Source of the DNA: Escherichia coli
GTDB taxonomy: Bacteria > Pseudomonadota > Gammaproteobacteria > Enterobacterales > Enterobacteriaceae
Assembly (NCBI RefSeq): GCF_036507355.1
Contig: NZ_AP027877.1
Length of the DNA: 64,000 nt
Strand: one strand, 5' to 3'
Below, piece after piece: positions 2,248 to 14,975 of the stretch. The first letter of the stretch is position 1; the number at the start of each line of letters is the position of its first letter. Under the pieces are notes generated by a model that worked only from the letters and a program-made list of their open reading frames with translations, did no database searches and was not told the DNA's origin. The position numbers were made by a program, and so were the translations under genes.

Positions 2248-2457
2248 TCGAATATCATGGAAATAATATGTGTCCGTTTTAAGGGCTATTACAGGCTTGG
2301 TGTGTTGGATTTGTTTTTCTTATTACGAACAAATAGCGACTGGCTCAGGCCGGGATTGTTTAGAGACAGATTCAGCATAGATTCGTAAAAATAAAAACTA
2401 TTAGCGCGAGATCCTCTGTTTATGCCGTGACAGTTAACTGATAGGAGGCTTGTTGGT

Positions 2458-3161
2458 TGGATTTGCCCCTATATTTCCAGACACCTGTTATCACTTAACC
2501 CATTACTGGCCCGCTGCCGCAGATATTCCCGTGGCGAGCGATAACCCAGCGCACTATGCGGATGCCATTCGTTATAATGCTCGAACGCCTCTGCAAGGTT
2601 CTTTGCTGCCGTTAACCCGTCTGGTTTGGGCATGATACTTATGTAGTCACGCTTTATCGTTTTCACGAAGCTCTCTGCTATTCCGTTACTCTCCGGACTC
2701 CGCACTGCCGTGTTCTTCGGTTCAAGTCCCAACATCCTGGCGAACTGACGTGTTTCATTCGCCCGGTAGCATGAACCATTATCCGTCAGCCACTCCACTG
2801 GAGACGCCGGAAGCTCGCTGCCAAAGCGGCGTTCCACTGCTCCCAGCATGACGTCCTGTACTGTTTCACTGTCGAAGCCACCCGTTGTGACCCCCCAGTG
2901 CAGTGCCTCACGGTCACAGCAGTCCAACGCGAACGTGACCCGCAGTTTTTCTCCGTTATCACAGCGGAACTCAAACCCGTCAGAGCACCATCGCTGATTA
3001 CTTTCTTTCACAGCCACTCTGCCGGTATGTGCCCGTTTCGATGGCGGTACAGCGGGTTTTCGCTCAAGCAACAGCGCATTCTGGCGCATGATCCGGTAAA
3101 CACGTTTGGCATTGATCGCAGGCATACCATCAAGTTCTGTTTGTCTGCGAAGCAGCGCCCA
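2458..3161 (-). mobile_element. IS2 remnant: right inverted repeat plus 3' part of orfB (IS3-family transposase), 5' portion deleted
   Basis: ORF 2469-3125 matches the IS2 OrfB C-terminal region as I remember it (...[36 protein letters not shown]...[12 protein letters not shown]); terminus TGGATTTGCCCCTATATTTCCAGACA at 2458. Similarity stops abruptly near 3161. Confidence 0.8.
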
Positions 3162-3636
3162 TAACGCAGCCCTTGCCTTACTGGTGTTTCTGGCCCTGAC
3201 CGGATTACGCCTTGGTGAAACCCGTTATCTTCTGCTTGAGGATATCGACTGGTCCCGTCAGACCATCACTTTGCGAGAAACTAAAAACGGTAAGCTTCGC
3301 TGTGTGCCAGTGGGTGATAAGGCCTTTGTTCTTCTGACTGAGCAGCGCCAGCACTTGGGCGATAAAGGCTGGGTTTTCCCCGGCTATAACACAACTAATC
3401 CGGTTGCAGAACCACGCCGTCTGCAAAAGCGTATATGTGAGAAAGCCGGTATTTCACCATTCACTATTCATGAGATGCGACACACTTTCGCCACGAAACT
3501 TATCGAGAGTGGGGCTGACATCCATACCATCAAAGATTTACTGGGCCACAGCACCATAAAGGTTACCGAGAGGTACCTACATGGCAGCCCGGTGCGCTAC
3601 CACGAGGCCATTAACAAGGCGATGGATACGTTCTAG
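3160..3636 (+). pseudogene. Tyrosine recombinase (phage-type integrase) C-terminal catalytic fragment, N-terminus missing
   Basis: ORF 3106-3636 carries integrase catalytic motifs (HEMRHTFAT, LLGHSTIKVTERYLH) but only ~160 aa; directly abuts the truncated IS2 segment. Confidence 0.7.
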
Positions 3637-3717
3637 GTATAAGCATAACTATCCACAGGCAGGTTAGTTCCTTTTTCCCTGCACGCGATTTATCTGTTTT
3701 TAATTGAGGATTAGATA

Positions 3718-5643
3718 ATGAATAACATAGTGACACCCGCCCCCTTAACGACAATGGCGCGTTTTGCCTGTTCGAAACTGAATGGATTTCTGGCTCGTCG
3801 GGCTTTGCATCAGGCAAATGCGAAGAAAATCCTTAAAAAGGCAATTGCAATCAGCATTGCGGTCGATGAGATTTCGGCAAAAGGGGGGCGTGATGGTCTG
3901 CCTGATGGGTTTGTTAACTCACCGCATGGGCTTTTTTATGATGATGGCAAAAAAGTGTTTCAGCTCAGTTCTACTGCTATTGTTCCCGTCAGCAGGCATT
4001 ATTCAGCGTGTAAGAAGCGCAATATGGGTGTCGAACTCATGACCATTAATCATGCGGGTCAGTATGTCTGCGCTGAAATTTCACTGAGCAACGTTACGCT
4101 AAACCCCGATAGTGTGATTGGCTCCCTGACAGCGCAAGGTTTCGGTATCCCTATGACGGTAAAGACGAAAGAGCTGTTGGCGCAGTTCTTACAGACATGT
4201 ATGAAGCAAGCGCTGGCTCTCCCTACCTACCTTGTCGCTGATTCAATGGGATTTGTACCCGGCAAGAAAGCGTTCTTACATGGCAATATGCCTTTAGCAC
4301 AGAACATCCCTGGGTTTGATTACCTTATTTCCGTTCAGCGTACACCCGCAGGGATCGTTGAGTCCGGCACGCTGGATGCGTGGAAGGCTCTGGTGAAAAA
4401 GAATGTCCATGGATGGCCACAGATTTTTGCATTGTGTTCTGCCTTTGCGTCCATGCTGGTTGCATTGTGTAAAATGGATGTGGCGATGTTTCACTTCTAT
4501 GGTGGGTCAACGACTGGAAAAACGATCCTTCTCCAGCTTGCGATGTCAGTTCATGGTCATGGCGGGGAGCCGGGAAGTGGAAAGCTTGTCAATGTTCTTC
4601 GCTGGAATACCACGGTGAATGCGCTAGAGAAGCGACTGAGTCAGTTCTCAGGCCTGCTGGCATGTGTGGATGAGTTGGGGGCTTATAAACAAAAGGACTT
4701 CGCTTCGCTCCTGTACAACATTACCGCCGGTCAGGGTAAAAGCAGAATGGACAAGAATCTGGATATACGTGAGCTTTATACATGGGAAATGTTAATTCTC
4801 TCCGCAGGTGAAATGTCCATTTCTGAGAAGCTAGCGACGGAAAAAGAACATCTTCAGGGTGGACAGGAACATCGCGCCATTAGCCTCAATGTTTTGCCTG
4901 AAGATGCCCGTAAAGACGGCGAATCATCAGAAAGGGTACGCTGCCGCGCTGATAGTCTGAAAAATGGCCTGAGTGAAGTTTATGGTACGGCGGGTAAGGA
5001 ATTTATTGCTAATTTGCTGGCACTGGATAATGACGATGATGAACCGCAGTCCTGGGATGAAATGTGCCTGTCTATTCAGGGGGCAGTAGAAGAACAACGT
5101 GACAGTCTTGTCGGTGAGCTGCAGGAAGAAGGTTATGCACTTAGTGACATTCAGCTGCGTGCATTAAAACGATTTTCCCTATGTTTGTGTGCCGGAATCC
5201 TGGCAGCATCATGGAATATCCTTCCGTTCAGTGAAGATATTATTAAGGGTGCGGTAATGAGCGCGGCTCGTCGCTGGCTGGATGATAAACCAAACCAGTA
5301 TAGCCCACTAAAGCAGGTGCTTACGGCTATCCAGCACGATCTTCTCACAACCAGAGCGTCCCATTTAATGCCGTTGCTTGATGAGGATGCGCATACCCCA
5401 TACAACCACTGGGGGTACACGGATAAGAACGATAACATGATGATTTTCGCTCCTGTTTTTGAAGGCTGGTGTGCCAAAAAAGGCATTAAACCTGCTGATG
5501 TGGCGAAAGCATTGGCAAAAAAAAATCACCTCAAACCAGAAAGTCAGGGCCACTACAAAAAACGTCCTCAGAAGGGAGTTCAGCAACCTTTTTATCTGGT
5601 TATGAATACATTTCTTGGCTGTAACATTGGCGCTGACTTTTAA
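3718..5643 (+). CDS. DUF927-like protein with P-loop NTPase (primase/helicase-like replication protein of integrative elements)
   Basis: 641-aa ORF with Walker A GGSTTGKT and Walker B-like CVDELG; architecture recalled from P4-like/integrative-element replication proteins. Confidence 0.55.
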   Translation: MNNIVTPAPLTTMARFACSKLNGFLARRALHQANAKKILKKAIAISIAVDEISAKGGRDGLPDGFVNSPHGLFYDDGKKVFQLSSTAIVPVSRHYSACKKRNMGVELMTINHAGQYVCAEISLSNVTLNPDSVIGSLTAQGFGIPMTVKTKELLAQFLQTCMKQALALPTYLVADSMGFVPGKKAFLHGNMPLAQNIPGFDYLISVQRTPAGIVESGTLDAWKALVKKNVHGWPQIFALCSAFASMLVALCKMDVAMFHFYGGSTTGKTILLQLAMSVHGHGGEPGSGKLVNVLRWNTTVNALEKRLSQFSGLLACVDELGAYKQKDFASLLYNITAGQGKSRMDKNLDIRELYTWEMLILSAGEMSISEKLATEKEHLQGGQEHRAISLNVLPEDARKDGESSERVRCRADSLKNGLSEVYGTAGKEFIANLLALDNDDDEPQSWDEMCLSIQGAVEEQRDSLVGELQEEGYALSDIQLRALKRFSLCLCAGILAASWNILPFSEDIIKGAVMSAARRWLDDKPNQYSPLKQVLTAIQHDLLTTRASHLMPLLDEDAHTPYNHWGYTDKNDNMMIFAPVFEGWCAKKGIKPADVAKALAKKNHLKPESQGHYKKRPQKGVQQPFYLVMNTFLGCNIGADF

Positions 5644-5818: not shown

Positions 5819-6238
5819 ATGTATCATACAACTCCTGATGAATGTCCTGAGTTTCCACAGGCGATTAGTTCCGAAAATGTGGGGAAAGTAAAATTTACAC
5901 GTTACAGGCTCTTAATGACACAGGCTCAATGCAATTTTTATGGTATTCAACGAGAGATTTTTGATGGCGAATTTCCTGCTCTTAGAGCAATTGTTAAAGG
6001 TGATTTTCAAATCGAATTTTTTGTGAAATATAAGTGTAGAGGGCTGGATTACTATGGTTCTCTTGGTGATTGGCCTCATATGACAATTAGTGATGCAAAA
6101 GAAATCGCAGAGGGAGTTTTCAATAACTGCGATGACTCCCACCGTAATAACTGGGAGGGTGAAAATGATAGCGATAGTATCGAAGAAGACATGATGAGCT
6201 ATTTTGAAAATGGTATTCCATTCGGCAATAATTCATAG
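5819..6238 (+). CDS. Hypothetical small acidic protein in very AT-rich segment
   Basis: 139-aa ORF with no recognisable family; surrounding 5640-6300 is conspicuously AT-rich. Confidence 0.35.
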   Translation: MYHTTPDECPEFPQAISSENVGKVKFTRYRLLMTQAQCNFYGIQREIFDGEFPALRAIVKGDFQIEFFVKYKCRGLDYYGSLGDWPHMTISDAKEIAEGVFNNCDDSHRNNWEGENDSDSIEEDMMSYFENGIPFGNNS

Positions 6239-6365: not shown

Positions 6366-7553
6366 CTACAACGTATCGGGTAACTGAGCGCGGATACGTT
6401 CCGCCAGTAACTGACTGGTGTTCTGTAAGCGCTGAGGATGAAGATGTGCATAACGCTGTGAAGACTGACTGCTACGGTGCCCCAGTTGAGCCTGAACGTC
6501 ATATAGCGTACCGCCGTAGGACACGATGAGGGCGGCAACCGAATGGCGGCAGGTATGGATACACACTTCCTTGTCGAAAATTCCCGCCCGACGCACGATA
6601 CGCTGAAAGGCTTTAACCGGGTTACTCAGCGGCATTCCCTGTTTTTTACCAATAAACAACCACGGATTTCCCCGCTGCGTTGGCAGCGTTCTGATTACGT
6701 CCATCGCCAGTGAGTTAAGGTGAACAATCCGTCCATAGCCATTCTTGGTTTCAGGGAGCCACAGGGTGCGTTTAACCGGGTCAACATGCTCCCACTTTGC
6801 CAGACGCAGCTCATCGCGGCGAAGGCCGGTCAATAACAGCAGTTTGACATAGCGGGCAGCTACAGGGCTGGTATCGTTATCGGCGGAGAGAAAAATACGA
6901 CGAATTTCGTCCTCGGTAAAATAACGCTGTCGGGCGTTGTTCTCCCTGAGTAGCTGTACCACCCTTGCCGGATGAACAGAGGTCATGCTTTGCCTTCCGG
7001 CCCATGTAAAGACGGCTTTAATGAGTACGATGACACGGTTACAGGTAGCCGCTGACAGGGAAGTACTTAACGTCTGCTGAAGGCGCAGAATGCTCGCTGG
7101 TGTGATATCGCTCAGCAGCCTCTGACCAATGGCGGGACGGATATGATCGCGGTAGCGCTGAACATCCTTTCCCCAACTGCGTTTAGCGGATTTTGCCCAT
7201 GGCAGATAATGCTGATTAAAGAGTTCATCGAACGTCAGCTCCATTCTCTTGTTTTCACGCTCCTGCTTAGGGTCAGTGCCGGTGGCAAGGGAACGTTTGT
7301 GTTCTATGGCAATCTGACGGGCAAGATTGACGTCCACTTCAGGCCAGTGACCAATGGCGATGGCGCGTTTTCGTCCATGATAGAGGTAGCGGAGCAAAAA
7401 CTTTTTACGACCTTCTTTTCTGCTGACCAGACACTTGAGGCCGGAAATCTCGGTGTCGCTGTATTCGGCATCGGTGCTGCGTGCATCTGATGTGTTAGGG
7501 GGCAGTGATTTAATGAGCTGATTAGTAAAACGGAAGCGTTTGGGAGTGGACAT
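6366..7553 (-). CDS. int: P4-type tyrosine integrase
   Basis: 395-aa ORF with arm-binding-like N-terminus and catalytic R..HxxR..Y region (HTCRHSVAALIV, LGHRSSQSSQRYAHL); lies 7.3 kb from tRNA-Phe and is transcribed away from it. Confidence 0.85.
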   Translation of the reverse strand: MSTPKRFRFTNQLIKSLPPNTSDARSTDAEYSDTEISGLKCLVSRKEGRKKFLLRYLYHGRKRAIAIGHWPEVDVNLARQIAIEHKRSLATGTDPKQERENKRMELTFDELFNQHYLPWAKSAKRSWGKDVQRYRDHIRPAIGQRLLSDITPASILRLQQTLSTSLSAATCNRVIVLIKAVFTWAGRQSMTSVHPARVVQLLRENNARQRYFTEDEIRRIFLSADNDTSPVAARYVKLLLLTGLRRDELRLAKWEHVDPVKRTLWLPETKNGYGRIVHLNSLAMDVIRTLPTQRGNPWLFIGKKQGMPLSNPVKAFQRIVRRAGIFDKEVCIHTCRHSVAALIVSYGGTLYDVQAQLGHRSSQSSQRYAHLHPQRLQNTSQLLAERIRAQLPDTL

Positions 7554-8066: not shown

Positions 8067-9119
8067 ATGGGGATCATCGTACGAATTCTTAAAGCTAACC
8101 ATGGCGATTGCATTTTGGTGAGCCATGAAAGCGGTTCAGGCACTCTCAACTTGCTCATTGATGGGGGACCTGCGACGACATTCAGGTATGGCATTAGGCA
8201 GCGCTATTCTGGAGCATTGAGTAACGCTCTCGATGATCTGAAAGGAAAGGGGCAAAACATTGATCTGGCTATCCTGACCCACATTGATGATGATCACATA
8301 AATGGTTTTATCAAGGCATTCGAAAGTCCAAACTATCTGCGTCAGCTGGTTAAATCGATCTGGTTCAATTCTTCGAGGTTAATCACACATCATTTTAATG
8401 TGCCTGAAATTTGTGAAAATAATATTTTCTTGCAGGAAGTTTCCCCTGAAACTAGCGTTAAACAGGGGCAAGAACTTGAGGCATTACTTGATGAAATCGG
8501 ATGTGTGCGAGCACCGCTCATTATGGCAGGGCAAATCTACAAAGTAGGCCCGATTACTTTAACAGCACTTTCACCTGAACGAAGACAACTCGAACAGCTT
8601 TTGCATAAGTGGCCAACGGAAGTAAGTTCAGCTGACACTTCTTCATATGAGAATGATTATCACCGTTCATTGGACGAAATTTGGGCAGATGATAGATTTG
8701 AATCTGACTCATCTATTTATAATGGAAGCTCAATTGCATTTTTACTGGAAACAGATGACAAAAAAATGCTTTTTTTAGGAGACGCCAATGACCAAGTTGT
8801 TACAAAAAATTTAAGAGCATTGGGCTATAGCGAAACAAACAAGTTGAAGCTGGATCTGGTTAAAGTTTCGCATCATGGTAGTCAATACAACACAAGCAAC
8901 GAATTTCTTTCAATACTAGATTCTCCATGCTTTGTTATTTCAACCAATGGTTCGAAGCATGGTCTTCCTAATAAAAGGACTATTGCAAGGATCTTAAAGG
9001 AAACAGATGGTGATATTTATTTTAATTACAGCAATGTAATTACTCCGCTGCTTTTAGCGCATGAAGCTGAGAGCTATTCTTCTCGTCTAAAAGTGCTAGG
9101 TGATGAGATTAAATTCTAA
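8067..9119 (+). CDS. Metallo-beta-lactamase-fold hydrolase (putative nuclease)
   Basis: 350-aa ORF with MBL motifs in canonical order: LIDGG, THIDDDH (8278-8298), FLGDAN, VSHHGS. Confidence 0.7.
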   Translation: MGIIVRILKANHGDCILVSHESGSGTLNLLIDGGPATTFRYGIRQRYSGALSNALDDLKGKGQNIDLAILTHIDDDHINGFIKAFESPNYLRQLVKSIWFNSSRLITHHFNVPEICENNIFLQEVSPETSVKQGQELEALLDEIGCVRAPLIMAGQIYKVGPITLTALSPERRQLEQLLHKWPTEVSSADTSSYENDYHRSLDEIWADDRFESDSSIYNGSSIAFLLETDDKKMLFLGDANDQVVTKNLRALGYSETNKLKLDLVKVSHHGSQYNTSNEFLSILDSPCFVISTNGSKHGLPNKRTIARILKETDGDIYFNYSNVITPLLLAHEAESYSSRLKVLGDEIKF

Positions 9120-10419
9120 CATGACAGTTTACGAAATAATGCAGTCCCACTGCGTCATGGTTAATGGTGGCAGTGGTGTGCTAGTTAATGCAATGACACT
9201 GGATTACACATATGTACTGACTGCATACCATGTTATTCGTGACACTCTCGATAATATCGAAGTTACCGATCACAGTGGCAATAAACTTACAGTATTAGCT
9301 GTGCTCCTATATCCAGATATTAAATATTTGAACGAATCCCATAATGATTTCGCAATTTTAAAAATTGAATATCAACCAGAAGTTGCACAAAGTTGTTTTA
9401 CTGCTTCGACGTTGCCTCCTCGTGCTGAGCTTACATTAGTAGGATTTCCAAACACTGAAAGAAGGAGTTCGGATCCTATAAAATATTATGATGGACATAT
9501 GACTAGCGTGGTCGATGAGCTTGTCATTTTCACTGTTGATGGTGTACCAGGCTTAGCCACGATAAAGGGGATGTCAGGTGGAGGTGTATATCACATAGTT
9601 GGTAGAAATACATTTCTTGTTGGTGTTGAGTTTAGGATGGATGGCACTGAAGAGGAACAACAGTTTGGCCGAGTGCAATGCCATAGCTTAGCAAAGTTTG
9701 ATGAAATAATAAGAGCATACGATAGCGCACCGATGATTCCTGCCCATTTGGAATGCTTTTCTCGAATACAAGACAAAATATTTAAATTTAATGTTATTGA
9801 TCAAAACAATGTTCGTAATCTTAAAGATGCGTTAGAAGCCCTTTCCAGATCACTTATAGCTAGTGGGATGTCTCCGCCTTACAAAATCATGGGGCAATAT
9901 GGATTACAGCTTTTGATGGATCCCAAAACTCCTAATGAGCTCAGTAATAAAGAGTTATGGATTTCTTATTTTGAATTTTTAGTTATTTGCTCTGTGATAG
10001 ATAATGTTGGAATTGTGGATGATGCATATATAAAAAGCTTGGAGCGAAAGCGGCGGCTATTATATACCAGTAATGGTGCGAACTGGATTAGCCATTTGGA
10101 AGAACTACTCAAAACGGCACGAAAACTTTTAGATAAGGATGGCACTTTAATCGTTGCATCACCTGATGCTGCTGCAAGTGTCTTGCCTCCGAACTTTCGA
10201 CTTAAAAACGTAATAAGTAATATAGCGGTAGTGCCAAACCAGGGGCCGTTTGCTATCGATGAAGTTGAAAGTTCTATTTATACAAGCTTCAAATTAACTC
10301 ATCTGGAGGGACTCCGCAAAAGCTGCGTAATAGACCGTGAGGATGAATATCTAGTAGTTCCAGCAGGTGTACCACAATTGCAGTTATTTAAGGAGAAGCT
10401 TAATGAAATTATTAAGTAA
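9100..10419 (+). CDS. Trypsin-like serine protease domain fused to a ~250-aa C-terminal domain of unknown function
   Basis: His (LTAYHVI), Asp (NDFAILK), Ser (GMSGGGVY) in S1 order in the first ~170 aa. Start ambiguous (GTG 9100, ATG 9103 or ATG 9121); overlaps or abuts the upstream stop. Confidence 0.7.
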   Translation: MMRLNSNMTVYEIMQSHCVMVNGGSGVLVNAMTLDYTYVLTAYHVIRDTLDNIEVTDHSGNKLTVLAVLLYPDIKYLNESHNDFAILKIEYQPEVAQSCFTASTLPPRAELTLVGFPNTERRSSDPIKYYDGHMTSVVDELVIFTVDGVPGLATIKGMSGGGVYHIVGRNTFLVGVEFRMDGTEEEQQFGRVQCHSLAKFDEIIRAYDSAPMIPAHLECFSRIQDKIFKFNVIDQNNVRNLKDALEALSRSLIASGMSPPYKIMGQYGLQLLMDPKTPNELSNKELWISYFEFLVICSVIDNVGIVDDAYIKSLERKRRLLYTSNGANWISHLEELLKTARKLLDKDGTLIVASPDAAASVLPPNFRLKNVISNIAVVPNQGPFAIDEVESSIYTSFKLTHLEGLRKSCVIDREDEYLVVPAGVPQLQLFKEKLNEIIK

Positions 10420-10942
10420 GGAAGTCGATCTGAGTATTTTAAGTGTGAAATATGATAAAATCAGATTTCACATGTATTGCTCAGATGATCCACTTTCATT
10501 TATTTCCTGTATAGTATGTGTATGTGAGACTTCAGCCGATATTTTGGAGAATTGGCGTACTATTCAAAATGTGGTTTCTGTTCACTATCAACCATCGGGT
10601 GACTTAGCATCTTGGAATATGTATATTGTTTTTTTTACAACTGATGTTTTTCCTGTATGGGAAAAATATGAAATAGAAAACAATAAGTTTGCTGCTCGCA
10701 AGATAATTATTGATAAATTCTCAGGTGCCCCCACCTCTGCTCAGTTAGTTACTGAGTTGCAAAAATATTTGTTGGGAACAGACTTAAGACTTGATCCGCG
10801 AGTCAATGAGTCAAAAGAGGCTTTATTGTCTTTAGATAAATACGTTCGTGGTGCTCCATTAGATTCAAAGAATGAGTCCAGAGAAATCCGCGCCTCCATG
10901 GTCAATGAAATAATTAAATTTTTGAACAAAAATGAAAATTAA
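10403..10942 (+). CDS. Small protein of unknown function (possible adaptor component)
   Basis: 179-aa ORF from ATG 10403 with AGGAG upstream; overlaps previous gene end by 17 nt and next gene start by 11 nt. Confidence 0.55.
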   Translation: MKLLSKEVDLSILSVKYDKIRFHMYCSDDPLSFISCIVCVCETSADILENWRTIQNVVSVHYQPSGDLASWNMYIVFFTTDVFPVWEKYEIENNKFAARKIIIDKFSGAPTSAQLVTELQKYLLGTDLRLDPRVNESKEALLSLDKYVRGAPLDSKNESREIRASMVNEIIKFLNKNEN

Positions 10943-13900
10943 AAAAGTTGAGATTGAAGCATTTCGTGCCTACAAATCTAGGTCAGATGGCACGTTTGAT
11001 TTCACGAATGATGGAGATGTTGCTGCAAATTTTGTTGCGATCTATGCTCCGAATGGTTTTGGTAAAAGCTCCTTCTACGATGCTGTTGAATGGGCAATTA
11101 CCAATCACATGGCAAGACTTGGCGGAGAATATAATAAAGCTAATTATGAGAACGCTGCCAAAATCACCAAGGACGATAATGTTGGGCAAGAAATTTTACG
11201 TAATAAATATGTAGATAAAAATATACGCACAAAGGTAGTGGTATCAACCACTCGACCACTCCCTTTTGAGCGTAAACTACCCAAAGTCAGATCTAATGGG
11301 CGTGATTTGCGATTCGGAGATAATAGTCAAAGAGAAAATGATTTTTTCCGACAAGTGATTCTAAGTCAAGATGAAATTGATAGATTTCTCCGAGAAGCCA
11401 AACCGCAAGAGCGCTATACGAAATTTATGGAAAGTTTCGGTGGAGATATTGAAATTGCCCGTAAAGAGCTGTCAGTACTTATAAATGATAATAAGATTGA
11501 GTTGAATAATCTCAATAAAAAGAGAGAATCTATTCTTGAACAATTAAAACAACCAATAGATTCTTCAATTTTCCAAAAATTCAATTCTATTGCTGTTGAA
11601 TTGAATAAGTTGGGTGAAAATATTCAATTACCTGACGAGAGTTTTTCATCTCAAGATGAATATGCTCTTAATGTTAGTCTTATATCGCGACGCCATGAAC
11701 TCGACTCATCACGTTTAACGAACAATCGAACGGTAGAAGCACTGGAAGACAGGCTTCTAAAAATATCTGAAACTGAATTACATGTCCGCAGTTTAGCAGA
11801 ACAGAATTTACATCTTGCTAAATTAGTGAAAGGAGTGGCCGACGCTGATAGGTACCAATCACTTTTGGATTCATACGAAAAATGTGCAGAAGATCAGAAA
11901 ACCACACACATGCATATGACTCGTATTATAGAAGTGATTGATTGCCTTGATGATTTTCTAAAAATTGAGTCTCATCTTCTTGAGTTGTCTACTAGCCAAA
12001 AGATAATTTCTGAAGAACGCACCAAGATCTGTGCGCAGCTTGCAGGTTTTGAAACAACAATTAATCAATTGAATAAGGAGCTTAAGGCTGTAGATGATAG
12101 GGTCGCTATACTTAGGAAGACCGTTGATAACGCCGGGCAAGTATATTTGGAGCTCGCAAATAACCGGGCTCGGGTAAGTAACCTAACACAGCAAATATCA
12201 AAAAAAGAAGTTTCTATTAAGATAGATAAATCTAGGCTTGGGGAGTTGAATCGTGAGTTGACTAGACTTTCTGAACTCAATATTAATGCCACCTCATTAT
12301 CAAACGGAAATCTAGGGACCTTACTTTTAGAACCTACGAAAGTTGAGCAGCTGACGAGATGTTACGCCGAGTTTGATGTGATTGAATCACAAATTCAAGC
12401 TGTGCATGTTACTCAAAAAGCATTATCTGAACAGATGGAATTGCATGAACGACTGATTGCCATTGGAATTGACTATCTTAGTGTACGACCATCCAGTATC
12501 TGTCCTTTATGTACAGCTCCTCACCCATCTGCGGACGGTTTACTGGATAAAATTAAAGGGCGGAACCTTTTATCAGAATTAAGTGAGGAGAATTCTAAAC
12601 AGCTTTTATTTTTCTCTACACGTCAGAAAGAAATTCTTCAATCAATTCAGGATATTACTCAGTGCGCAATTGATTCAAAGGCTCAGTTGATTATTAACTT
12701 AAACAAGGAATTGAGTGAGACTGACGAGAGACTTACTCTTGCAGGTAGAGATATATATTCAATAGAAGCAGAGTTAAAGACTCTTGAGAAACGGACCACA
12801 GAGTTAGAAAGTTTAGTTTGGGCACTTTCACATGATGAACTGGTATCCCGAATTGAAAAAGAAATTGGTGAGCTTTCAATCAAAAGTTCAAAGCTCCTAG
12901 AAGGAAAAGCATTAATTACCCCTCAGGTTGAAATGCTTAATGAATCACTCAAAGAAAAAGACTCTGCGCAGCAAAAAATAGCTTCGGAGTTGGAAGGTAT
13001 CTTTAGCGGAAATATCTACATTACAGTTTATAAATACTTAAATGAAAATGCGATTTCGTCTTCATCCCTCAAAAGTCATACTGAAAAAAGGAAACTAGAG
13101 ATTGAGGCTGAAATAATTAAGTGTAAAACCACTATTGAGTTTTTGACTGAACAATGTGCTGTTTTACAGCAAAAAATGTTAAGTGATGGTATGTGGGTGG
13201 ATTTTGTTCAGTTGAAGCTGCAAAAAGAATCTTTAGAAATAAGTGTTGCCCGCTCTCAATCAGTAATTAACACGTTTTATGAGAGTTTATCTAACCTTAT
13301 AATTATCCGTCCTGAGTACAGTCTTGAAAAAGTCAAAGAGCTCATAGCTGCGAAAGTTCAGGATTGCCATCTTCGTACGAAAGAATTTGATAGGCTCTCA
13401 AATAATATTAATTTACTCATAGAACTTATGAGTTCGTTTAAGCCATATATTAAACATACAGCTCTTCAGAAAGATTTAATGGCTGAAGAGATGTTAATAA
13501 AACAGCGTGAACGGGTCGACACTACTTTAACCGCAGAAAGAGATGCAATAGTGGATAGCCTGAAACTTCTTATCAATAATTTCTTCTATGAAGATCTTAT
13601 TAATTCTATTTATAAGAAGATAGATCCGCATCCTGCCTTTAAAAAAGTAGAGTTTAAGGCTGACTTTGATTCTGATAAGCCAGGCCTAAATATTGTGGTT
13701 AGTGATGAGGTTGGAGAGCAAATCTCGCCAATACTTTATTTCAGTGCGGCTCAAACGAATATTCTAAGCTTAAGTGTCTTTTTAGCTAGTGCACTTCATG
13801 CGAAAGACGATGAGGGTAATCCCATCAATGTTGTTATGATTGATGACCCAATTCAGTCAATGGATTCGATTAATATACTCTCTACGATAGATCTTTTAAG

Positions 13901-14063
13901 AAGTATATGTGTTCAATTTGATAAACAAATTATTATTTCAACGCATGATGAAAACTTCTTTGCCTTACTCCAGCGCAAAATCCCTGCCCAAATTTTTGGA
14001 TCTAAATTCTTGCAATTGGAAAAGTTTGGTGTAGTCGTCCCGGTGCAACCCTTTGTGAACTAA
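10932..14063 (+). CDS. SbcC/Rad50-like ABC ATPase with long coiled coil and central CxxC zinc hook
   Basis: 1043 aa: Walker A NGFGKSS (Lys codon 11064-11066), Q-loop ILSQDE, CPLC at 12501-12512 (residues 524-527, mid-protein), signature-like FSAAQ, Walker B VVMIDDP, H-loop STHDE. The middle ~600 aa are heptad-rich and Leu/Glu/Lys-rich. Confidence 0.8.
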   Translation: MKIKKVEIEAFRAYKSRSDGTFDFTNDGDVAANFVAIYAPNGFGKSSFYDAVEWAITNHMARLGGEYNKANYENAAKITKDDNVGQEILRNKYVDKNIRTKVVVSTTRPLPFERKLPKVRSNGRDLRFGDNSQRENDFFRQVILSQDEIDRFLREAKPQERYTKFMESFGGDIEIARKELSVLINDNKIELNNLNKKRESILEQLKQPIDSSIFQKFNSIAVELNKLGENIQLPDESFSSQDEYALNVSLISRRHELDSSRLTNNRTVEALEDRLLKISETELHVRSLAEQNLHLAKLVKGVADADRYQSLLDSYEKCAEDQKTTHMHMTRIIEVIDCLDDFLKIESHLLELSTSQKIISEERTKICAQLAGFETTINQLNKELKAVDDRVAILRKTVDNAGQVYLELANNRARVSNLTQQISKKEVSIKIDKSRLGELNRELTRLSELNINATSLSNGNLGTLLLEPTKVEQLTRCYAEFDVIESQIQAVHVTQKALSEQMELHERLIAIGIDYLSVRPSSICPLCTAPHPSADGLLDKIKGRNLLSELSEENSKQLLFFSTRQKEILQSIQDITQCAIDSKAQLIINLNKELSETDERLTLAGRDIYSIEAELKTLEKRTTELESLVWALSHDELVSRIEKEIGELSIKSSKLLEGKALITPQVEMLNESLKEKDSAQQKIASELEGIFSGNIYITVYKYLNENAISSSSLKSHTEKRKLEIEAEIIKCKTTIEFLTEQCAVLQQKMLSDGMWVDFVQLKLQKESLEISVARSQSVINTFYESLSNLIIIRPEYSLEKVKELIAAKVQDCHLRTKEFDRLSNNINLLIELMSSFKPYIKHTALQKDLMAEEMLIKQRERVDTTLTAERDAIVDSLKLLINNFFYEDLINSIYKKIDPHPAFKKVEFKADFDSDKPGLNIVVSDEVGEQISPILYFSAAQTNILSLSVFLASALHAKDDEGNPINVVMIDDPIQSMDSINILSTIDLLRSICVQFDKQIIISTHDENFFALLQRKIPAQIFGSKFLQLEKFGVVVPVQPFVN

Positions 14064-14899: not shown

Positions 14900-14975
14900 T
14901 GGTGCCCGGACTCGGAATCGAACCAAGGACACGGGGATTTTCAATCCCCTGCTCTACCGACTGAGCTATCCGGGC
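14900..14975 (-). tRNA. pheV: tRNA-Phe (GAA anticodon)
   Basis: Reverse complement reads GCCCGGATAGCTCAGTCGGTAGAGCAGGGGATTGAAAATCCCCGTGTCCTTGGTTCGATTCCGAGTCCGGGCACCA, the E. coli tRNA-Phe as I remember it; position next to yqgA-speC indicates pheV. Confidence 0.95.

Follow-up and report, generated by a model that had tools for sequence, protein, structure and literature searches.

The locus studied here raises the question of how the right-hand part of an IS2 element came to be joined, through its own interior, to the interior of a tyrosine recombinase gene on the opposite strand. The stretch of DNA that we analysed, 64,000 nucleotides in length and referred to below as the window, represents the chromosome of Escherichia coli at tRNA-Phe (14900-14975), beside yqgA and speC, and the joined fragments lie within an island that is integrated there. 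As set out below, the arrangement is probably a scar of decay that arose in two steps, through insertion of IS2 followed by a single deletion of approximately 3,220 bp.

To define the IS2 fragment we used as reference an intact 1,331-bp IS2, namely the copy from E. coli FDAARGOS_1299 (L002 1503-2833). Alignment of this copy with positions 2458-3163 of the window (minus strand) extended over 706 bp at 99.4% identity, with 4 mismatches and no gaps, and assigned the fragment to positions 626-1331 of the element. In other words, the right-hand 706 bp, or 53%, of the 1,331-bp IS2 has been kept. The right inverted repeat (IRR; 2458-2499, minus strand) is intact, has its terminus at 2458 and is identical to the IRR of the reference copy. 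The 26-nt IRR terminus, TGGATTTGCCCCTATATTTCCAGACA, which starts TGGATTTGCCCC, occurs once in the window, as compared with zero copies expected by chance. These findings agree with a preliminary description of the locus, which had traced similarity to IS2 orfB from the right inverted repeat to about position 3161.

Within the fragment, a frame that has remained open (2469-3163, minus strand) encodes the 3' part of orfB, residues 71-301, which comprise the catalytic region of the transposase. This frame matched positions 71-301 of the 301 positions of the NCBIfam model NF006918 ('IS2 transposase TnpB') with an E value of 1e-160, at a score of 534 bits that is under the cut-off of 597, and it also matched the Pfam families rve (1.7e-19) and rve_3 (1.1e-18). 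The left inverted repeat (IRL), orfA, the frameshift region and codons 1-70 of orfB, including the start codon of that gene, are gone. Indeed, nowhere in the 64 kb of the window did we find IS2 positions 1-625, and no genuine IS2 left end bounds the segment, the feature that the preliminary description had named as evidence against its own reading. Matches to the IS2 stretch are present in more than 6,000 E. coli records, and each match ends at 3163.

IS2 transposes by way of a figure-of-eight and then a minicircle, with the IRR serving as the donor end and the IRL as the recipient end (PMC3299598). The stub has one end only (the IRR) and no transposase, and because of this it is predicted to be unable to form the IRR-IRL minicircle junction and can be regarded as a dead remnant. 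Three features of a functional IS2 are missing from it: an IRL, an orfA-orfB transposase made with a -1 frameshift, and a flanking 5-bp duplication. The stub thus resembles known IS2 (IS3 family, IS2 group) in its 99.4% identity over 706 bp, its exact IRR and its orfB catalytic region, but differs in that it consists of positions 626-1331 only and in that the second copy of the target site is gone.

On the other side of the junction, positions 3164-3636 (plus strand) encode residues 236-392 of a tyrosine recombinase of 392 amino acids, followed by its stop codon, which ends at 3636. This sequence is 100% identical to positions 10887-11359 of an uninterrupted island (L001), and the identity of 100% extends over window positions 3161-3900 (L001 10884-11623). 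The remnant contains the catalytic domain only. It matched Pfam Phage_integrase (PF00589) from profile position 24 to 168 of 172 with an E value of 1.6e-29 and a score of 103 bits (cut-off 27.1). The 157 residues that have been kept make up nearly the whole catalytic domain, so that 'catalytic half', the wording of the preliminary description, was apt. The full-length protein aligns over residues 236-392 with the structures of XerA, XerD and the HP1 integrase, and the catalytic motifs in this region, including TERY, align with those of XerA (4a8e). As read from the XerA alignment, which is the basis for the assignment of individual residues, the catalytic set Arg...Lys...His-x-x-Arg...His...Tyr appears to be retained.

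The recombinase has lost its first 60%, up to codon 235, where the breakpoint lies. In the full-length relative, which matched PHROG 1, 'integrase', at 1.4e-63, a weak Arm-DNA-bind_3 domain, Phage_int_M and Phage_integrase follow one another; the arm- and core-binding domains occupy residues 22-198, with the core-binding (SAM-like) domain at residues 110-198 (PF22022, 27.3 bits; PF14659), and all of this lies upstream of codon 235. The Arm-DNA-bind_3 (DUF4102) match in the full-length relative scores 23.4 bits, below the Pfam cut-off of 27, and the domain is absent from the copy in the window. Because it has no DNA-binding domains, the fragment would fail as a functional recombinase, and it is presumably non-functional. 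The native start is also gone. The only in-frame starts upstream are TTG 3106 and TTG 3112, both inside IS2, and no obvious ribosome-binding site was found for either. Since a search of 2300-3800, itself a weak test, found no sigma-70-like promoter, and since a clear ribosome-binding site is missing, we set aside the idea that the hybrid open reading frame 3106-3636 is expressed. The hybrid products of 176 and 174 amino acids are absent from a collection of 15 billion proteins.

The closest full-length counterpart is WP_000690682.1 (392 amino acids), which is encoded in the island of strains YZ22MPE54 and GPEC1189. Codons 236-392 of that gene match the DNA of the remnant at 100% identity, and the same DUF927 gene lies downstream of both, but the remnant differs in the lack of codons 1-235 and of the 398-amino-acid gene upstream. 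The preliminary description had called the integrase 'P4-like', a term that is only loosely apt. The full-length relative does have the three-part layout of P4-type integrases that act at tRNA sites; however, its arm domain scores below the cut-off (23.4 as against 27 bits), and its gene is internal to the island rather than proximal to the tRNA. The truncated gene is a second, island-internal recombinase, not the tRNA-proximal integrase, which is intact at 6366-7553 (Arm-DNA-bind_3, 51 bits).

The junction between the two fragments was resolved base by base in a three-way alignment. The switch falls at 3163/3164, with IS2 identity ending after 3163 and island identity beginning at 3161, such that three bases, ATA (3161-3163), match both parents. 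The fragments are on opposite strands and each is without its 5' part. This interior junction shows neither foreign sequence nor filler, nor any sign of a second scar. We thus recovered the switch, within a few bases, to an integrase on the other strand that had been described, as well as a junction internal to both genes (at IS2 position 626 and recombinase codon 235). By calculation, approximately 5% of random junctions would share at least 3 bp, and for this reason the 3-bp microhomology lends weak support to any particular mode of joining.

The other boundary of the IS2 segment is of a different kind. Uninterrupted islands read ...CTTGTTGGT|ATATCAATT..., and in the window the left junction reads ...GGCTTGTTGGT|TGGATTTGCCCC, with IS2 abutting directly after TTGGT (2453-2457), the presumed target site. 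The island sequence that would adjoin an intact IS2 on the right at this site is TTGGTATATCAATT. IS2 duplicates 5 bp of its target on insertion. Only one copy of the expected duplication is left here: the 706-bp segment is not bracketed by a 5-bp duplication, its left flank being TTGGT and its right flank AACGC (or ATAAC), and the second copy of TTGGT has presumably been deleted. The exact junction between the IRR and the flank is the mark of an insertion made by transposase; the other boundary, which is located inside IS2 and inside a gene, is not the product of transposition.

Comparison with the same island in other strains, which the preliminary description had proposed, reveals what is missing. 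Both flanks of the IS2 stub were found in four complete E. coli genomes, YZ22MPE54, GPEC1189, BKQWHE and AREA_C483, where 2,593-2,594 bp free of IS2 separate them. The window therefore misses 2,590 bp of island DNA (L001 8294-10883), and no other part of its 64 kb contains them. In YZ22MPE54 and GPEC1189, the missing DNA consists of the remainder of a divergent intergenic region, the gene encoding the protein of 398 amino acids (for which Pfam, NCBIfam and PHROGs returned no family) and recombinase codons 1-235. Because the two junctions mark precisely the ends of the missing 2,590 bp, the locus reflects an insertion plus a deletion and not a simple insertion. This supports the earlier reading that a deletion or recombination followed IS2 insertion, with the order itself being deduced.

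The ancestor is best represented by GPEC1189, which matches the window at every base of positions 1000-2457 and differs from it at a single base over 3161-5604; this near-identity on both sides indicates that the flanks share a recent history and that the change happened in place. We therefore rejected the introduction of foreign DNA by recombination at the scar, as GPEC1189 is essentially identical up to both breakpoints. A local inversion or translocation was likewise rejected, since neither the missing part of IS2 nor the 2,590 bp was found in the 64-kb window.

The left flank has a history of its own. Across 1-2457 it is mosaic: mismatches with YZ22MPE54 cluster in 1251-2250 (48 of 58), and those with GPEC1189 are all in 1-1000, mostly in 1-750, as would be expected if variants of the island had recombined in the past. 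A further 109 genomes share the window from position 1 to approximately 2241-2275 only and then diverge. On the right, the GPEC1189 island (L003 20597-23615, compared with the window from 14951 onward) is followed by frvB/frvA/rhaM/rhaD and not by yqgA/speC; similarity to the window breaks off within the tRNA-Phe gene, and the annotation shows no tRNA at this point. Either the GPEC1189 chromosome may have been rearranged at the tRNA, or its island may have integrated elsewhere.

The history that we consider probable has two steps. In the first, IS2 would have inserted by normal transposition into the intergenic 367 bp that separate two divergent island genes, at the target TTGGT, with the IRR on the left and the IRL on the right. 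In the second, one deletion, independent of transposase, would have joined IS2 positions 626-628 to recombinase codon 235 at ATA. Such a deletion would have removed approximately 3,220 bp, made up of 625 bp of IS2, the second 5-bp copy of the target and 2,590 bp of the island; it would have taken with it the IRL, orfA, the start of orfB, the whole of the 398-amino-acid gene, the region upstream of the module and the arm- and core-binding parts of the recombinase. Replication slippage or the repair of a break by microhomology-assisted end joining are the likely routes by which the ends may have been joined. We infer the number of events, and likewise their order, as no genome with an intact IS2 and a duplication of TTGGT was found.

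Large deletions joined by microhomology have been documented in E. coli, where alternative end joining depends on ligase A (Chayot et al. 2010, to the extent that this work is cited in PMC4872102). The deletion proposed here resembles these in its kilobase-scale loss, in the few base pairs shared at the joint and in that the interior breakpoint coincides with neither a repeat nor a transposon end. It differs in that the pathway is not readable from the sequence of the window and in that a microhomology of 3 bp is close to chance.

How firmly this history is to be preferred depends on four other readings, of which the one that comes closest is an aberrant integration of IS2 in one step. Here the IRR end alone would have been transferred at TTGGT and the broken intermediate would then have been end-joined to the recombinase gene. 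An exact IRR junction with an irregular other side is what such an event would leave, and the IRR is the chemically active donor end of IS2 (PMC3299598); moreover, an intermediate with an intact IS2 was found in neither 5,426 genomes nor metagenome contigs. The missing intermediate is weak evidence, however, because this variant of the island is carried by only four genomes, and normal insertion of IS2 uses both ends of the minicircle together (PMC3299598). As no intermediate was found, the sequence does not separate integration in one step from insertion followed by deletion, but taken together these considerations make the one-step event unlikely. Several successive events, be they separate deletions of IS2 and of the island or a deletion caused by a mobile element that was lost later, are a distinctly less probable source of the scar. 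The island is prone to insertion sequences, as illustrated by an IS1 in the DUF927 gene of GPEC1189, an IS1203 in the same recombinase gene (GCA_958302845.1) and an IS1 near a variant with a 3,363-bp deletion. Against this, the junction is clean, with both parents read to the base and an overlap of 3 bp, and a single event suffices.

We also considered whether transposase made the interior junction by using a surrogate end within IS2, near positions 626-628 (TATGGGCGCTGCTTCGCAGACAAAC), as the left end. This sequence has a CAGACA motif and a TA/TGG tip like that of the true ends, and gapped alignment to the IRL places position 626 among the best 1.4% of interior positions, with a score that is not significant after correction for 8 comparisons. 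The ungapped identity is 13 of 40, which is equalled or beaten by 14-16% of interior positions, and CAGACA lies 5-6 bp out of register; overall, the interior end is no more like the IRL or the IRR than chance would allow. Furthermore, there is no 5-bp duplication (TTGGT versus AACGC), and the sequences on either side of the segment do not adjoin each other in the ancestor. Even with a surrogate end, a deletion would have to be invoked, and use of such an end is extremely improbable. It is equally hard to credit that a chimeric join in the source assembly created the junction. The junction has been seen in one assembly only; neither the 5,426 complete E. coli genomes nor the GTDB species representatives gave a match to it, and the left junction alone is likewise found in 0 of the 5,426 complete genomes and in none of the JGI metagenome contigs. 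Yet misassembly at repeats links homologous copies of a repeat and does not fuse, at 3 bp, the interior of an insertion sequence with unique DNA. Moreover, the source consists of one contig of 4.64 Mb, and both flanks are collinear with related islands.

Insertion followed by a single deletion thus remains the history that we favour, and other inactivations of the same recombinase gene bear on how such a scar should be viewed. In GCA_958302845.1 (contig CATQKT010000011.1; L005 1-78), the gene is interrupted by the right end of an element of the IS1203/IS629 type, the 78 bp of which are 100% identical to annotated copies of IS1203. The site corresponds to 3168/3169 of the window, 5-8 bp from the IS2 junction. 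An independent insertion so close by in another strain is the basis for the reading that this part of the gene is a hotspot. We did not adopt a hotspot on the strength of IS1203, because we attribute the proximity mostly to the way in which the insertion was found; the exact look-up of the 150-amino-acid product returns only truncations within approximately 38 bp upstream of GTG 3184. That the interior junction was made by the IS2 transposase, whether through a one-ended event or a surrogate end, or that recombinase codons 235-238 are a hotspot for the IS3 family, strikes us as highly improbable.

A second inactivation involves no insertion sequence at the joint. In GCA_027275165.1 and GCA_027275185.1, an independent deletion of 3,363 bp (equivalent to L003 4539-7901) removes DNA from the same interval and joins a 143-amino-acid gene of the left flank, in antisense, to recombinase codon 187 (L006/L007 3042-3051). 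The joint has an imperfect 9-bp homology, GCTGTCCGC versus GCTGTTCGC. This deletion indicates that illegitimate deletions occur in the interval without IS2. With the scar in the window, there are three independent inactivations of the recombinase, which suggests that the recombinase is not needed by the host. Other truncated or hybrid recombinase N termini are present in public records of E. coli and Citrobacter (for example, P0002 and P0011).

Downstream of the recombinase remnant, by 81 bp, is an intact primase/helicase-like gene (3718-5643, plus strand) whose product matched Pfam DUF927 (4.5e-34) and PHROG 8841, 'DNA primase/helicase' (4e-44). The order of recombinase and DUF927 gene is kept in YZ22MPE54, GPEC1189 and AL.H8. 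In the window, the DUF927 gene has lost everything upstream of it in its module, and an exact look-up of its protein gave no match. Between the DUF927 gene and the integrase lies a gene for a protein of 139 amino acids (5819-6238) that some records name 'DUF4102 domain-containing' (arm DNA-binding) and for which AL.H8 has, at the same position, an 'Arm DNA-binding domain-containing protein'; we found no Pfam match for it at E<=0.01. The interval between the integrase (6366-7553) and tRNA-Phe holds a cargo block of approximately 6 kb (8067-14063, plus strand), annotated in relatives as a ComEC/Rec2-family protein, an 'ABC-three component system' protein, 'middle component 1' and an AAA ATPase of 1,043 amino acids; it has the look of a candidate defence module. 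Islands related to this one, AL.H8 among them, are without this block and have their integrase approximately 1.6 kb from the tRNA. No second copy of the tRNA-Phe 3' end, which would mark an internal island boundary, was found in the window.

In islands associated with tRNA genes, remnants of insertion sequences and truncated integrases are commonplace. Both components of this scar, IS2 and an island tyrosine recombinase, are already known, and the scar itself is ordinary and fully explained. The source GenBank record annotates the IS2 stub (2469-3125; VEE46_07360) and the recombinase stub (3184-3636; VEE46_07370) each as a 'hypothetical protein', and in RefSeq the 150-amino-acid recombinase fragment carries a regular accession, WP_338388377.1, as a 'tyrosine-type recombinase/integrase' and not as a pseudogene. 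Both fragments would be better annotated as pseudogenes or remnants. Beyond annotation the finding has little significance. What it records is that a module composed of the 398-amino-acid gene, the recombinase and the DUF927 gene has here lost its first gene, most of the recombinase and its upstream region, and that any function in mobility or replication that depended on the lost parts of the module is probably gone.
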